Positions 4,565 through 63,643 are shown, counted from the stretch's first letter. The stretch: DNA of 64,000 nt from a virus (IMGVR_UViG_3300027869_000006:1-64000), one strand, 5' to 3'. The notes: a model not told the origin generated them from the sequence alone. A program made the numbers and translations.

Positions 4565-4652
4565 ACATAACGGGCCTTCCCAAGAGTTACCTAAATCAGC
4601 CTGTAAAGCGGAACAGGAAATGTCTCTCTCTCGCCTTCAAGAAGGAGTATCT

Positions 4653-5033
4653 ATGGCAACTATCAAATATCTTGACCCCGAATGGTGGGTAGCAAATACG
4701 ATCAATGTGACCACGTTTCGCTATAAGGGTAAAACCTATACCATCTCTACCGTGAGACTTTCAGCAGTAGCCGATCCGGTGATGCGCCGCTATTCGCGAT
4801 TCCTGACCGAACTTGGTGACACGATGACGGGCAATACTGCCTTGACCGATAAGGACTATGAGACCATGCTTTTCATTGATGGGGAAAGTACTGGTGATGC
4901 GGTCTATCCCTTTGGTGATCTCCCAGGAAACAAGAAACAAGGAACCTACGTGCGCTATGATACAGAGGATCAGGCACGTGATGGACATCAGGAGTTTGTA
5001 AGTCAGGTCAAGCACATACTCACAGGAGAGTGA
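4653..5033 (+). CDS. hypothetical phage protein
   Basis: AAGGAG RBS before ATG 4653; YETMLF...RY.TE.QA..GH motif. Confidence 0.7.
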   Translation: MATIKYLDPEWWVANTINVTTFRYKGKTYTISTVRLSAVADPVMRRYSRFLTELGDTMTGNTALTDKDYETMLFIDGESTGDAVYPFGDLPGNKKQGTYVRYDTEDQARDGHQEFVSQVKHILTGE

Positions 5034-27519: not shown

Positions 27520-28641
27520 ATGGCACTATCAGAAGAGCATCGGTGCAAAATCTCAGAGGCTAATCGGGGGCAAAAGCGATCTGAAGAGACAAAGCGCAAG
27601 ATGAGGGAAGCGAGAAAAGGGAGAACCTATTCAGAAGAATCGCGCCGCAAGATGAGCGAGACACATAAGAAGCTTCCTGGTCATCCGCATACTGAAGAAG
27701 AAAAGCGCAAGATCAGCGAGGCCAATAAGCGAGAGAACAGGGAAGTTCCAAATAAAGGATGGGCTAACCATACGATATCTGAGGAAGGCAAGCAGAGGAT
27801 TCGAGAATCAAAGTTAGGGAAGAAGCGAGCTCCTTTTTCAGAGGAATGGAAACGCAAGATTAGTGAATCTCAGAAAGGGCACATGGTTTCTTCAGAAACA
27901 CTTCAGAAACGTCAAGCGACACGAGCCGCACATGGAGCCTATGAGACATTACGACAAAGTGCTTATAGGATGGGGAAAGCCAATCAAGGAAGAAAGCCAA
28001 CTGAGGAAGTCAATCAAAAAAGACGTGAAGCGTCACTGCAACTCGCAAGTGATCCTGAACACTTGGCAAAGATCAGTCGAGGGGTATTGAAAGCCTATGA
28101 AAATCCAGAGTTTCGAGCACGGAATCGGCAGATACTCGATGAGGCACGAGCGAAGTCAGTTGCAGCGATAACGGGTGTACCTCTCTCAGAGGAGCGAAAG
28201 GCCCGACTCTCGGAAACATCAAGAAAAGCGAGGCTTGAATACTGGAAAGACAAGTCATATGAAGAACGTCTCGCTTATATGCACACTGCGACAGTAGCCT
28301 CAGAGAATATCAGAATATCTTCTCTAGAGTTGCAAGTCAAAAAGTTGCTTGATGCGATGGGTATTCAATATGAGCAACAAAAGCAGATAGGAATGTACTG
28401 GGTTGATTTCTATCTACCAGCAATGAATACAATTGTAGAGGTTTACGGGTGTTGGTGGCACGGATGCGAACAATGTGGGAAGGCATATCCAAAGAAAAAT
28501 GCTCGTGATCGAAGTCGTGAAGCCTATATCAAGGCATGTGGGTATCAACTTGTCATCCTTTGGGAGCATGACCTTGTAGAGAATATGGAGTGGATGCAGT
28601 ATAATGGTAATGAGACAGACAGCGCTACCAGAACGGATTGA
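27520..28641 (+). CDS. free-standing homing-type endonuclease: NUMOD3 repeats plus Vsr/DUF559-like nuclease
   Basis: Repeated SEE.(K/R)RK(I/M)SE; C-terminal VDFYL..IVEVYGCWWHG..RD..GY..LWE; AT-rich; own promoter TTGACT-N18-TATACT at 27445-27474. Confidence 0.85.
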   Translation: MALSEEHRCKISEANRGQKRSEETKRKMREARKGRTYSEESRRKMSETHKKLPGHPHTEEEKRKISEANKRENREVPNKGWANHTISEEGKQRIRESKLGKKRAPFSEEWKRKISESQKGHMVSSETLQKRQATRAAHGAYETLRQSAYRMGKANQGRKPTEEVNQKRREASLQLASDPEHLAKISRGVLKAYENPEFRARNRQILDEARAKSVAAITGVPLSEERKARLSETSRKARLEYWKDKSYEERLAYMHTATVASENIRISSLELQVKKLLDAMGIQYEQQKQIGMYWVDFYLPAMNTIVEVYGCWWHGCEQCGKAYPKKNARDRSREAYIKACGYQLVILWEHDLVENMEWMQYNGNETDSATRTD

Positions 28642-58426: not shown

Positions 58427-58560
58427 AGTGGTTTTTCAGATGGGTCCATCAAGTGATGTCTTTGTTACACAAGAGGCGCAGCTATAGCGAAACGATCCTG
58501 GCTGAGAAGCCGATCCGTTACTATCGACTCGATGGAAGTGACACAACACGTGAGCAATGA
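58423..58560 (+). CDS. small ORF carrying a LamG N-terminal remnant
   Basis: YSETILAEKPIRYYRL resembles YRTTILADNPLYYNR in the 52720 product. Confidence 0.4.
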   Translation: MKWFFRWVHQVMSLLHKRRSYSETILAEKPIRYYRLDGSDTTREQ

Positions 58561-59275
58561 AGAGTGCAAACTGATTGCATACCAACTCTATGATGGTGAT
58601 CTCCCCATGCAAATCGTTCCGGCACCGCGCAAACGGCAGTGGATGGATCAGACGCCACAGAGTTTTGCGAACCGTTGCCTCCCGCTCTTACTGGGAAATG
58701 CGAGCGGCTGGTGGCTCTTGAACACGCACGAGATACAGGTGACCTGGAACGGCGGCACTGATCTCTCCGCGCTCACCATCGCGGGTCGGGGTAGTTCGGA
58801 GACCGGCTATGCACTGAGCCATTTTGGTAACGGTCTCTTAACTTGGAATATTCCCCTGCTCTTTTCCACGCCCCCTGGATATAATTTGCTGGTACGTGGC
58901 CCTGCAAACTGGCCCAAAGACGGGGCATACGCACTGGACGGGCTTGTGGAGACAGATCACGCTGTGGCGACATGGACCATGAACTGGAAGATGACGCGGC
59001 CTGGCCTGACCGTCACCTTTGCCAAGGGCGAACCGATAGCACAAATCGTGCCACAGAAGCGTGGAGAACTAGAGACATTCACCCCGCAAGTACGGAACAT
59101 CAGAGAGGCACCAGAGTTACAAGCTGCATACAATGCGTGGGCATCTAGTCGCTCAACATTCAATATGGAACTGAAGAGACCAGGGTCAGAGGCAGTGAAG
59201 CGGCAATGGCAAAAGGATTACTTCCAAGCATCCCATCAAACAAAGGTCGCATTGAAGGAGTTCACAACTCCATGA
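58532..59275 (+). CDS. DUF6065-like protein
   Basis: R.WMD.T...FANRCLPL, SHFG.G, GPANWPKDG, VETD, WQKDYF. Confidence 0.75.
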   Translation: MEVTQHVSNEECKLIAYQLYDGDLPMQIVPAPRKRQWMDQTPQSFANRCLPLLLGNASGWWLLNTHEIQVTWNGGTDLSALTIAGRGSSETGYALSHFGNGLLTWNIPLLFSTPPGYNLLVRGPANWPKDGAYALDGLVETDHAVATWTMNWKMTRPGLTVTFAKGEPIAQIVPQKRGELETFTPQVRNIREAPELQAAYNAWASSRSTFNMELKRPGSEAVKRQWQKDYFQASHQTKVALKEFTTP

Positions 59276-59311: not shown

Positions 59312-59896
59312 ATGGCAACGACACCGACAAAAACCCCGAAGCAGCAAGCCTCACTCGCAGGCGTCTGGCAGGGCATTGAGGCACCAATCATCGGTATCCT
59401 CCTCTCCCTTGCCGTAGCTATTCAGCAGTATTTTAGTACCCATAGTGCCCCAAATTGGGGAGAACTGGGAATGATCCTGTTCCCGACCGTCATTGTTGGT
59501 ATTGTGCAAGCACTCAAGCAGTTCAATGCAACACTCGGGCAGGCATCAGTTCCCATCGTCACCGTCCCGCCGCCCGCACCGGTTGTCTCACCATCCGACA
59601 TTGCGGCAGCGATACGACAGCAGGTACCAGGACTGGTCATACAACAGCCACCGGCACCACCGTCGTTCATTGCGCCGTCAGTGCCACCAGGAGGATACGA
59701 TACGACGCTGGTCCAACCCCTCTCATTCGCCCCTCTGACCACGCCTGCCCAGCCACAACAACCGTACACGTGGTCACAGCCAGAACCATCCCCGACACTC
59801 ACGACACCTGCGCCAGTAATTACGCCGGTATTGTCACTGCCAAGTACGTTTCCGCAAACACTCGATTTACCAATCGTACGACCACAAATTGAGTAA
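59312..59896 (+). CDS. putative holin-like 2-TM protein with Pro-rich tail
   Basis: GGAGG RBS; two TM segments; near endolysin. Confidence 0.6.
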   Translation: MATTPTKTPKQQASLAGVWQGIEAPIIGILLSLAVAIQQYFSTHSAPNWGELGMILFPTVIVGIVQALKQFNATLGQASVPIVTVPPPAPVVSPSDIAAAIRQQVPGLVIQQPPAPPSFIAPSVPPGGYDTTLVQPLSFAPLTTPAQPQQPYTWSQPEPSPTLTTPAPVITPVLSLPSTFPQTLDLPIVRPQIE

Positions 59897-59897
59897 T

Positions 59898-59935
59898 AAT
59901 AAAGGGTACTACATCTGCATGTAGTACCCTTTATT
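59898..59935. terminator. bidirectional intrinsic terminator
   Basis: Perfect 17-bp IR AATAAAGGGTACTACAT-ctgc-ATGTAGTACCCTTTATT between convergent units. Confidence 0.85.
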
Positions 59936-59941
59936 CATCCC

Positions 59942-60129
59942 ATACCATACCGCATCCCGCCGGACTGCACCCCACCCAGCCTTGCCAGACATTACCCCGC
60001 ATCGCCACGCCTTACCCCACCGAACTACACCTTACCAACCAGACCATGCCGAACCCGACCGGACCACGCTATACCGTACCTTACCTTACTGAACCCAGCC
60101 AAGCCGGACCTCACCATACCTACCGTGCC
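59942..60129 (-). repeat. GGY-NN pentamer array C (38 units), putative guide RNA
   Basis: Minus strand GGCAC GGTA GGTAT GGTGA GGTCC GGCTT...; 5-nt period with two 4-nt slips. Confidence 0.9.
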
Positions 60130-60130
60130 A

Positions 60131-60349
60131 TTAAGCGTATCGTGTTTGGTCTGTCTCCCAGTTCACTAAACGTACAGGTGTCACATCTAAGTCTGTGATA
60201 GGAATGCCATACTTTTCTTCAGCTAAACTCAGTCCTTCCTGAGCATCACTAGCGGTTATCTCACCCACTATAGGCACCTGCTGCTTTCTTAGCTTGGCAT
60301 GCACGGTAGTGTCATGTCCCTTATACCAAACATCGAACCTATGCAACAT
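60131..60349 (-). CDS. 72-aa accessory protein coupled to the Cas7-like gene
   Basis: TAATG overlap at 60347-60351. Confidence 0.65.
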   Translation of the reverse strand: MLHRFDVWYKGHDTTVHAKLRKQQVPIVGEITASDAQEGLSLAEEKYGIPITDLDVTPVRLVNWETDQTRYA

Positions 60350-60897
60350 TACTTCACCTTTTCCCATGACACAAGAGCAAATCTCCCATACGGCCCTTTC
60401 TTTGCAGGACGGAAGTCACCAATGCCAACAAGTCGCCCTGCATCGGTGAGTATGTCACGGATAAGACGTTCACCAACTAGATCGGTATCAATCTGAACAT
60501 CAAACTCCATATTCCACTCATCGAACATTGGCCTGTGGCGTAGAATACGCCCCCCAGTCGCTTTAATGACAACAGCCCGTGAGTCCACATGCCATTCCCC
60601 TACCAGAGGAATTTCAAATGGGCTAACATAGACCCCTGCCGCTACATCAGTTGTCGCAGCCCTCCGTCCAATTTTGTGTCGTGATGCTGCTGCAATCATT
60701 GACTGCCGAATATTCTCAGCCGGATAGAATGGGCTATGTTCATTGGTATACAGGCGACTTGCCGCATCTTCATGAGGAGCCGGATATTCTTTCCGACCAT
60801 GTGTTCCTGAAGTTGCTTCCTCTGCCGCTGCCTCATGAAAACGATTCACGATGAGCGGCGTCAAACTCGTAATGTTGACCTTGTACGTTACAATCAT
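60349..60897 (-). CDS. minimal Cas7/RAMP-like protein (182 aa)
   Basis: YKVNITSLTPLIVN, YPAENIRQSM, RHRPMF..W, C-terminal G-loop GRLVGIGDFRPAKKGPYGRF; AAAGGA RBS before ATG 60897. Confidence 0.75.
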   Translation of the reverse strand: MIVTYKVNITSLTPLIVNRFHEAAAEEATSGTHGRKEYPAPHEDAASRLYTNEHSPFYPAENIRQSMIAAASRHKIGRRAATTDVAAGVYVSPFEIPLVGEWHVDSRAVVIKATGGRILRHRPMFDEWNMEFDVQIDTDLVGERLIRDILTDAGRLVGIGDFRPAKKGPYGRFALVSWEKVK

Positions 60898-60928
60898 GTG
60901 TGTTATCCTTTCTGTGTGAGTAACTTGT

Positions 60929-60960
60929 GTGGTGCCCTGCCCCAGTGGTAGGGCTACCAC
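60929..60960 (-). other. hairpin 3' of array B
   Basis: GTGGTAGCCCTACC-actgg-GGCAGGGCACCAC. Confidence 0.55.
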
Positions 60961-60977
60961 GCGAAACAAAATGAACA

Positions 60978-61161
60978 AAACCATACCAGACCGGACCTCG
61001 CCAAACCCGGCCTTGCCAGACCGGGCCTTGCCAGACCGGGCCAAACCCGACTACACTAGACCTCATCATGCCACACCTCCCATACCATACCCATCCTTAC
61101 CGAACTGCGCCAGACCGCAACGTACCAGACCGCGGCAAGCCGGGCCGGACCCAACCTAACC
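60978..61161 (-). repeat. GGY-NN pentamer array B (37 units), putative guide RNA
   Basis: Plus strand NN-RCC units AAACC ATACC AGACC GGACC TCGCC...; one 4-nt slip at 61078-61081. Confidence 0.9.
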
Positions 61162-61172
61162 TATTCCTCAGC

Positions 61173-61370
61173 AAACCATGCTATACCCCACCTGACCGTA
61201 GCACTCCTTCCAAACCGCACCATACCCAACCAAGCAGGACCCCGCGTCACCGCACCTGATCGGGCCATACCCCACCTGACCAAGCCGTGCCTACCTTGCC
61301 GCACCAAACCTCACCTCACTCAGTCTTGCCTCGCTGGACCTAGTCGCACCGAACCTGACCTTGCCGTGCC
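61173..61370 (-). repeat. GGY-NN pentamer array A (40 units), putative guide RNA
   Basis: Begins ATGGCACGG like array C; two 4-nt slips; 11-nt linker to array B. Confidence 0.9.
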
Positions 61371-62005
61371 ATAATCCTGCTATAGGCCAATTTCACGCAG
61401 AACTCAACGTCATTCCATACCTGGGAGCCAGTGAAGCGAAGAACGTACCAGCCTTGATCTTCAATCGTATGCTGTCGCATATAGTCTCTATTTCGGTCTC
61501 TCTTGTGACTATGGAACGCTTGCCCATCAAGTTCGATTACTATCTTTGCTTCAACATGGGCAAAGTCTACACGATACTTACTAATCCGATGCTGTCGCTC
61601 AAGAGGGATATCTGGATACAGCAGGCACCATGCTTCATAAAAGGCTTCCTCGATGGGACTTCCATTCTTGACGGATTGCTGAATTTCCCGTAAACGATTA
61701 CGAGCCTCATTAAGTGCAGCCTCACGTTGTTGATTAGCAAGTCGCAAGGCTTCTACTCGCTCTGCTTCTAGTGCTTGACGACGTTCTAGGGCCTGCTCTC
61801 GCTTCTCCCGAATGGTTGCTACTTCAATCTCTCTCTGGACAGATTGCTGATGCTCATTCGCACGACGCTTCAACTCCCTAGCTTCCTGAATCATACTAGC
61901 TTTCTCTGCCGCAAGTTGACGTTGTATGGCAAGTTCATGCTCTCTGTCAGCTTGAAGTTTTCGTTGTTGTTCTTGATAGTCGTTGAATGCTTGCCAGTCC
62001 ATCAT
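61340..62005 (-). CDS. coiled-coil plus DUF559/Vsr-like PD-(D/E)XK endonuclease
   Basis: SPIE..QHRISKYRVDF..IVIELDGQAFH..RD..R..GWYVLRFTGSQV. Confidence 0.85.
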   Translation of the reverse strand: MMDWQAFNDYQEQQRKLQADREHELAIQRQLAAEKASMIQEARELKRRANEHQQSVQREIEVATIREKREQALERRQALEAERVEALRLANQQREAALNEARNRLREIQQSVKNGSPIEEAFYEAWCLLYPDIPLERQHRISKYRVDFAHVEAKIVIELDGQAFHSHKRDRNRDYMRQHTIEDQGWYVLRFTGSQVWNDVEFCVKLAYSRIMARQGQVRCD

Positions 62006-62187: not shown

Positions 62188-62216
62188 ATTTTACTACAAA
62201 CAAGTGTTCTTGTCAA
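62188..62216 (-). promoter_or_regulatory. consensus sigma70 promoter of the Cas7-like cassette
   Basis: TTGACA(62216-62211)-N17-TAAAAT(62193-62188). Confidence 0.8.
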
Positions 62217-62276
62217 GAGGAAAAGAAGACGCCCTTGACACAAGCATATACTAAGAGCAGAAGGGGGAATTTTTCT

Positions 62277-62837
62277 TTGGAACGCGGGTCCGTTATTCTT
62301 TTTGAGAAGGATGGCAGTCTCTTCAATTGGCTCATCACGAAAGCAACTCATGGTCCCTATGTCCATGTGGAAATTTGCCTGGGCGAGGAACGCCTGATCG
62401 GTGCTCACGGTAACCGTCGCGGCATCTATGAGCGTGATTGGGCCGATGCACCTTCGTTAGTGACGGAGGTCTCTCTCTCCCCCTATGCCGATGAAGAGCA
62501 CATCGAGCAGGCCCTTACCTGGGCGCAAGAGCAACAGGGGCATCCCTATGGATGGTGGGATATCGCCAGTCAGTCCATCAAGTTCTTGTGGCCAACGACA
62601 CCGCTCCGGTTCAGCAAGTCAGACGCATGGGGGTGTGCAGACTATGTGACCCGCTATCTGATACAAGCAGGGGTGGCCTTGCCAGAAGACTTCATGGACC
62701 CTGGGAAAAACTCGCCCAACGATATTGGACGGTTGTTCCATCTCGTTCCACAACGGCCACAACGCATCAGAAAACGGGAGAGAGAGTTGAGGAAAGGTCA
62801 TGCCATTGCCGCATTTGCCGCCTCCAGACGAGGATGA
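62277..62837 (+). CDS. permuted papain-like (YiiX/YaeF-type NlpC/P60) amidase/peptidase
   Basis: His before Cys: GPYVHVEI, GHPY, WGCADYV, SPND; TTG start after AGGGGG. Confidence 0.7.
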   Translation: MERGSVILFEKDGSLFNWLITKATHGPYVHVEICLGEERLIGAHGNRRGIYERDWADAPSLVTEVSLSPYADEEHIEQALTWAQEQQGHPYGWWDIASQSIKFLWPTTPLRFSKSDAWGCADYVTRYLIQAGVALPEDFMDPGKNSPNDIGRLFHLVPQRPQRIRKRERELRKGHAIAAFAASRRG

Positions 62838-63488: not shown

Positions 63489-63643
63489 AGCCGAGGTTCC
63501 CATCCATTACATACATGCCCAGCATCGCCTCGTCTTCACAAGGGTGCTGGGCATGGTTATGTTGGTGCCGGTGGCAGGAAATGAGCCTGCGCCTCCGGGT
63601 TTGTAGCCCGGCGCTCTCTGAGCTTCACCGGCATAGGCTCTCC

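Follow-up and report, generated by a model that had tools for sequence, protein, structure and literature searches.

One-base slips as probable borders between guide RNAs in a staggered VIPR array of a tailed phage

We consider it likely that the repeat tracts at positions 59,942 to 61,370 of this viral DNA encode the guide RNAs of a VIPR system carried by a phage, in which slips of a single base separate neighbouring guides in a staggered array. Judging from the sequence, the slips are most likely the points at which one guide RNA gives way to the next, and it is there that the RNA would be processed. The locus is a member of the VIPR family and not an unknown analogue of CRISPR, since the homology of its central protein to Vipr, the Cas7/Csm3 fold of that protein, and the GGY/NN tracts match the published combination. 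The window, i.e., the whole stretch of 64,000 nucleotides that was analysed, is part of a 109,768-bp tailed-phage record in which terminase, portal, capsid, tape measure, and endolysin genes are present.

VIPR, published in 2026, is a CRISPR-related RNA-guided DNA silencer (bioRxiv 10.64898/2026.04.26.720920). According to the same preprint, its minimal RAMP protein Vipr polymerises on vrRNAs of 9 to 16 YNNGG repeats, the NN bases of which pair with DNA while one target base is skipped per unit. Cryo-EM structures place one Vipr protomer on each repeat, with the GG of a GGY on one protomer and the pyrimidine on the next; vrRNA length sets the length of the filament, and natural vrRNAs comprise up to 30 repeats (10.64898/2026.04.26.720927). 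"Staggered arrays with overlapping vrRNAs" is one of the array types listed, and the legend to fig. S18 describes vrRNAs from positions that overlap by 1 nt, the end of one being the start of the next (bioRxiv 10.64898/2026.04.26.720920). A 1-nt overlap between pentamer tracts appears in DNA as a 4-nt unit. The slips are a rediscovery of this described feature, which stands in the available text of that preprint without confirmation by sRNA-seq, the latter having confirmed only the other two array types.

By homology, the 182-aa product of the gene between the two arrays is a Vipr RAMP protein related to the reference Vipr of Escherichia phage SUSP1. It has 120 metagenomic homologues and no match to a Pfam family. 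BLASTP aligns it with SUSP1 Vipr (YP_009199429.1) at E 3e-13, and hhalign does so over 170 columns with a probability of 98.8% (E 9e-17). The best Foldseek folds for its AF2 model (pLDDT 85) are Csm3 and type VII Cas7, at E 1e-6 and TM 0.5-0.6. The GGY-contact residues R138, D177, and R179 of SUSP1 correspond to R122, D161, and R163 in the window, which are invariant in 26 homologues, and W178 corresponds to F162, so that the aromatic character is kept; a further SUSP1 contact, H17, aligns to N18 and is not conserved. Two readings of the tracts were rejected given this neighbouring RAMP gene homologous to Vipr, namely, a protein-titrating RNA with periodic GG (TRAP-like or CsrA-like) and a two-tier G-quadruplex array.

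The tracts were delineated by parsing the minus strand into Y-N-N-G-G units by dynamic programming, with units of 4, 5, and 6 nt allowed. As a positive control, the parser recovered all four published SUSP1 vrRNAs. It found two YNNGG (GGY/NN) tracts on this strand, 79 units at 60981-61373 and 39 units at 59940-60132, i.e., 118 units in total beside vipr and on the same strand as that gene, and gave just chance calls of 7 to 10 units in the rest of the 64-kb window. The upstream array is placed between the DUF559 gene and vipr, and the downstream array between a small ORF and a strong terminator (Table 1). In transcript order, the run lengths are 16/16/8 and, beyond a 6-nt unit, 16/19 in the upstream array, and 2/16/19 in the downstream array. 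Apart from this one 6-nt unit, the off-size units are five units of 4 nt. These are the same five events that the initial annotation had reported, in a GGY-NN register shifted by +2, and the run lengths given there (15/16/7, 16/20, and 1/16/19) differ from ours by the ±1 of the register convention. Its observation that the first and last of its three arrays (A and C) start alike holds as well, both of our arrays opening with ATGGCACGG; in the downstream array this leader is followed by TAGG, a combination also present in L097, one of the related loci described below. Random placement of an equal number of slips in the window arrays yielded four runs of exactly 16 units in only 37 of 20,000 simulations.

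Table 1. Features of the predicted VIPR cassette, in transcript order
Feature	Coordinates	Strand	Basis
Sigma-70-like promoter candidate TTGACA-17-TAAAAT, upstream of cassette	62188..62216	-	11/12 consensus matches
221-aa gene, candidate accessory (vap-like)	61340..62005	-	Pfam PF04480, E 1.3e-15
Predicted guide 1, upstream array	61294..61373	-	16 YNNGG units, opens with ATGGCACGG; parser
4-nt putative delimiter TAGG, CAAGG before it	61290..61293	-	parser
Predicted guide 2	61210..61289	-	16 units; parser
4-nt putative delimiter AAGG	61206..61209	-	parser
Short 8-unit run, partly degenerate	61166..61205	-	sequence read directly
Sole 6-nt unit AATAGG (A/B border of the initial annotation)	61160..61165	-	parser
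Predicted guide 4	61080..61159	-	16 units; parser
4-nt putative delimiter GAGG	61076..61079	-	parser
Predicted guide 5, end of upstream array	60981..61075	-	19 units; parser
vipr, 182 aa, minimal RAMP (Cas7/Csm3-like)	60349..60897	-	phrog_4652, E 7e-17; homology to SUSP1 Vipr
78-aa ORF between vipr and downstream array, gene status uncertain	60131..60367	-	ORF only
Two leader units AATGG CACGG, downstream array	60123..60132	-	parser
4-nt unit TAGG, first putative delimiter of downstream array	60119..60122	-	parser
Predicted guide 7	60039..60118	-	16 units; parser
4-nt putative delimiter TTGG (60037-40 in the initial annotation)	60035..60038	-	parser
Predicted guide 8, end of downstream array	59940..60034	-	19 units; parser
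17-bp hairpin, U/T tracts on both strands, bidirectional intrinsic terminator	59898..59935	.	-27.6 kcal/mol, z -7.7

Some features of the window speak against reading every slip as a guide border. One run has a length of 8 units, one border consists of a 6-nt unit, and the terminal guides, at 19 units each, exceed the published 9 to 16. The 8-unit run is probably a truncated duplicate and not a working guide: GG is missing in three of its eight units, and it has GGTCAGGTGGGGTAT in common with the preceding guide 2. Two other readings of the arrays were rejected. A 78-aa ORF at 60833-61069 is a mere run through the repeats, and the folding of the guides was no better than that of shuffles (z -1.6 and 0.0). 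Within guide 5, a 15-nt (3-unit) tandem repeat, CCCGG TCTGG CAAGG, occurs 3.8 times at 60986-61042 on the minus strand, and in two related loci internal tandem repeats of 7 to 8 units are found within guides (L096:2489-2593 and L097:2755-2844). In all three sequences such duplications of pentamer blocks are confined to one guide, and none extends across a slip; they could be slippage products or belong to guides against repetitive targets.

The cassette would be transcribed as one minus-strand operon, from about position 62216 to the terminator at 59898, that comprises the DUF559 gene, a five-guide array, vipr, the small ORF, and a two-guide array. A search for sequencing runs that contain the sequence gave one DNA run, from a soil metagenome and probably the source, and no RNA run. 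The promoter candidate was identified only by its match to the consensus, and sigma-70-like sites are no more numerous in the region than expected from shuffling. The 221-aa protein has a helical (coiled-coil) N-terminal part and a C-terminal DUF559/Vsr-like endonuclease domain, and the 3' end of its gene overlaps the start of the upstream array. DUF559 homologues (42-48% identity) are located directly upstream of the arrays in five of the related loci (L001, L002, L094, L096, and L097). The 78-aa ORF downstream of vipr matched no family. It is missing from the related loci, in which the vipr stop codon is immediately followed by the array; it may have been inserted in this lineage only, or it may not be a gene. 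Among the cassette ORFs searched, no cas family was found, the only matches being DUF559 and phrog_4652. Hairpins had been noted in the initial annotation behind both the second and the last of its arrays (B and C). The latter hairpin is strong and closes the cassette 3' of the downstream array, but the one 3' of array B is weak (z -1.9). The cassette follows the lysis module on the opposite strand. Between the endolysin gene and the gene whose end falls at the shared terminator, a DUF6065 protein is encoded (58532-59275, plus strand, E 8e-84), and a tRNA gene (63566-63632, minus strand, Rfam 60.5 bits) lies just outside the cassette. Between the head and tail gene blocks, a 373-aa ORF with homing-endonuclease/HNH matches is present at 27520-28641 on the plus strand.

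The main support for the slips as guide borders comes from the comparison with close relatives. These loci, with Vipr proteins that are 63-75% identical, were gathered from IMG/VR (L001-L004) and from metagenomes (L094-L098), and slip statistics were derived from eight of the close loci. All have the same architecture as the window. Across the clade, GG is found in 79% of the units and Y in 92%, and the entropy of NN is 3.86 of 4 bits. Off-size units in the eight loci are almost uniformly short, 56 of the 59 being 4 nt long and only 3 being 6 nt long (binomial p 1e-13). The runs of more than 3 units (n = 54) have a mean length of 15.7 units (sd 3.7) and a mode of 16, which occurs 13 times. Runs of 13 to 22 units make up a share of 0.62, compared to 0.24 ± 0.05 when slips are placed at random in the same arrays and in the same numbers; none of the 20,000 trials reached the observed value. 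The survey of run lengths in homologous arrays that had been proposed with the initial annotation therefore gives a distribution peaked at 16 units and slips that are not randomly placed.

The slips also have a sequence context of their own. CA?GG directly precedes 24 of the 56 4-nt units in the eight loci but only 75 of 784 units elsewhere (p 7e-10), and the entropy of NN at the slip is 2.5-2.7 bits versus 3.9 elsewhere. The slip unit itself is mostly TAGG or TTGG in the close loci, which yields a loose delimiter, CAWGG-TWGG. In L003, GG-AWGC takes its place, and in the window the motif is loose, CA?GG being found before only two of the five slips. No conserved spacer or tail is present between the runs in the close loci. 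Among the 4,129 units of 71 Vipr loci that are more distant, the frequency of 4-nt units is 0.22 per 100 units, 30-fold lower than the approximately 6.4 in the clade, and the slips are thus not an artefact of parsing.

These numbers bear directly on the idea that the 4-nt units are neutral single-base deletions, introduced as mutational noise or assembly errors and devoid of function. Such an origin would be compatible with the variation of the slip units in the window (TAGG, AAGG, GAGG, and TTGG), with its one 6-nt unit, and with its one degenerate 8-unit run. Yet it does not account for the 56:3 bias toward the loss of one base, for run lengths far more regular than random, for the enriched flanking motif, for an architecture that recurs across eight loci assembled independently of one another, or for the 30-fold lower rate in other Vipr clades. 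We regard neutral deletion as most improbable and as effectively refuted by the comparative statistics.

Additional evidence is provided by two metagenomic loci, L096 and L097, the flanks and some guides of which are almost identical base for base. Neighbouring guides in the same arrays agree at none of the NN positions, the only ones at which their units diverge, and are of unequal length (20 versus 16 units), and one guide is absent; identity returns at CAAGG-TAGG or CATGG-TTGG. Since the two loci share ancestry, this evidence for the exchange of modules represents few independent events. Taken together, the bias toward -1, the regular spacing, the context motif, the exchange of guides, and the control with distant loci lead us to conclude, on comparative grounds, that the slips are lineage-specific, selected punctuation that coincides with module borders.

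Possibly, the slips are no more than evolutionary module borders, i.e., sites of guide gain, guide loss, or recombination at CAWGG-TWGG, and neither processing sites nor filament ends, in which case the array would yield one or two long multi-guide RNAs that are discontinuously coated. It can be argued in this sense that L096 and L097, by swapping entire guides at slips, reveal modularity of the DNA and not of the RNA, that natural vrRNAs may have up to 30 repeats (10.64898/2026.04.26.720927), and that distant clades carry unbroken arrays of 55 to 92 units. On the other hand, the motif of 9 nt is short for homologous recombination, and the tight mode at 16 units is more easily understood as a functional constraint on the length of a ribonucleoprotein. 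Moreover, with one base missing, two protomers can no longer hold a GGY between them, so that the filament would at least be interrupted, and the legend to fig. S18 refers to the units of staggered arrays as individual processed vrRNAs (bioRxiv 10.64898/2026.04.26.720920). We consider a purely evolutionary role unlikely and prefer the reading in which the slips are borders between guide RNAs.

In the initial annotation, too, it had been proposed that guides are probably delimited by slips, in the manner of CRISPR repeats. This proposal is upheld here by the direction bias, the run lengths, the motif, the exchange of guides between L096 and L097, and the published staggered arrays, but the argument from decoding on which it had relied, that the slip at 60037-40 falls exactly between two segments that decode to different genes, has to be abandoned, both matches being at the level of shuffled guides. 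That argument belongs to a further alternative, according to which the two genes next to the cassette are the targets of the segments that the slip at 60035-60038 separates, the resident copies escaping through recoding between the Ser and Leu codon families, as in homing or self-immunity. Local matches of 17/26 (59825-59863) and 21/34 (62274-62323) are what speaks for it. However, the 21/34 of the proximal segment equals the mean of shuffled guides (20.9 ± 0.9), and the 17/26 of the distal 13 units compares with a best-in-genome value of 17.4 ± 0.7 for shuffles, 20% of which attain 17/26 even within the local 6.6 kb; the 13-unit sub-window had, moreover, been picked in hindsight. In the published cases, natural targets match at >80% and are located in competing elements and not in the carrier (bioRxiv 10.64898/2026.04.26.720920). 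Because both matches are explained by chance, the idea of self-immunity by recoding falls, and we attach next to no probability to targeting of the flanking genes.

Searches for other targets were conducted in the phage genome (110 kb, with skips of 0 to 3 nt) and in 1.6 Mb of related loci, where no guide match rose above the shuffled controls. Likewise, IMG/VR scans with 9-unit cores of g1, g2, g4, g5, g7, and g8 gave zero or chance matches, the flanks of the latter agreeing at approximately 25%. The best external match was found for a guide common to L096 and L097, with 27 of 34 informative bases at positions 2911-2960 of an IMG/VR contig (L104); it includes a stretch of 12 units in a row in which a single base is mismatched, and it falls in an ORF of 492 aa that resembles a halogenase. 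We judged it to be a chance match, the contig belonging to an unrelated AT-rich virus and the skipped base falling on codon position 1. The natural targets are expected to be rival phages.

How might a single missing base delimit a guide? By analogy with SUSP1 VIPR, each YNNGG unit would be bound by one Vipr protomer, with GG on one and the pyrimidine on the next, and the two N bases would be shown to the target DNA for pairing, every third target base being skipped. What parts neighbouring guides would be a break in phase of one base, in the form of a 4-nt unit that is usually embedded in CAWGG-TWGG, with no long structured tail or ribozyme; a search for Rfam ribozymes found none. As the grip on GGY needs two protomers in register, a unit that is short of one base could not be bridged, and the Vipr filament would stop at the slip. 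Each run of approximately 16 units (80-85 nt) would then be assembled into a ribonucleoprotein of its own with about 16 protomers, and we infer that the exposed RNA at the junction gets trimmed, giving separate particles. Such particles would fit the published statement that vrRNA length sets filament length.

Conceivably, nothing but the one missing base signals where a guide ends, and it is the Vipr filament that measures and cuts guides of about 16 units without a tail, a ribozyme, or a dedicated enzyme, since a GGY is gripped by two protomers and a 4-nt unit cannot be crossed in this way, while the DUF559 nuclease makes the phage silencer a cleaving weapon against rival phages. We put this forward as a speculation that is more probably wrong than right. 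The combination does not feature in the available text of the VIPR preprints, which tie nucleases to host-defence types.

The closest known counterpart is the staggered VIPR array, with which the window shares a solo Vipr RAMP gene that has GGY/NN tracts on both sides and on its own strand, the location in a phage, and neighbouring guides offset by one base such that the end of one is the start of the next. The preprint in its available text gives neither run-length statistics nor a delimiter motif, whereas guides in the window clade are mostly of 16 units (range 8-25) and are delimited by CAWGG-TWGG. Runs in the clade reach 19 to 25 units, compared to the 9 to 16 quoted in one preprint (bioRxiv 10.64898/2026.04.26.720920) and up to 30 in the other (10.64898/2026.04.26.720927). 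The conserved neighbour in the clade is a DUF559 nuclease-like gene, while in the preprint predicted nucleases figure as accessory genes of the host-defence types III and V (bioRxiv 10.64898/2026.04.26.720920). The SUSP1 type II VIPR (vap1, four vrRNAs) has a homologous Vipr in which the GGY-binding Arg/Asp/Arg is kept, and YNNGG repeats both upstream and downstream of vipr, with guides of 11 to 16 units. However, identity between the two Vipr proteins is only approximately 26-32%, and the accessory vap1 is a DNA-binding protein instead of a DUF559 nuclease-like protein. Each SUSP1 vrRNA is described as a unit of its own that ends in a structured, conserved 3' tail of about 40 nt with a pseudoknot, whereas the guides in the window abut with a one-base slip only.

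Resemblance to class 1 CRISPR-Cas systems (type III Csm3, type VII Cas7) extends to the RAMP fold, the binding of one protomer per fixed RNA step with periodic base flipping, and variable guides that are co-transcribed and then divided into unit RNAs. In contrast to these systems, the window cassette is without repeat-spacer units, Cas6-type repeat hairpins, adaptation genes, and other cas genes. The class 1 period is 6 nt with 5 informative bases, against 5 nt with 2 in the window, and CRISPR guides are delimited by a repeat of 25 to 40 nt and not by a phase break. Such 25- to 40-nt repeats were not found in the window arrays, where TRF and the parse gave a 5-nt period and one 15-nt internal duplication.

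Other members of the family show other array grammars. In more distant Vipr clades (approximately 40% identity), uninterrupted in-phase arrays of 55 to 92 units without slips are found (L031:3480-3955 and 4586-4930, L012:4590-4869, and L016:4596-4870), inside and at the end of which the doublet CAAGG CAAGG recurs; this doublet may be an in-phase delimiter. A further locus (L063:4499-5688) comprises 13 arrays of 12 to 19 units, most of which end in TAAGG AATGG, with a 15-nt AT-rich spacer, TTTAATGAATTTAAT, between them, unlike the window clade, in which runs follow one another without a spacer. Runs of 20 to 30 units with ATATTTTATTGAT spacers and occasional 6-nt YNNGGG units are present in L009 (4068-4798 and 6912-7166) and L011 (4066-4994), and a second array of L009, with runs of 9 to 12 units, is staggered by CAGG.

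In summary, the locus is a fresh example of the known staggered-array kind of VIPR and not a new kind. VIPR is very recent, with preprints dating from April to October 2026, and the locus and its eight close relatives provide a quantitative grammar of the staggered array, consisting of the -1 slip, the 16-unit mode, the CAWGG-TWGG context, and the exchange of whole guides at slips. This grammar can be of use to array callers, in which such guides are otherwise fused with one another or cut short. The phage-borne DUF559 nuclease-like neighbour is a small departure from the published picture and leaves the known concept unchanged. With its compact size of 2.3 kb, the cassette is well suited to testing how the ends of guides are set without a tail.
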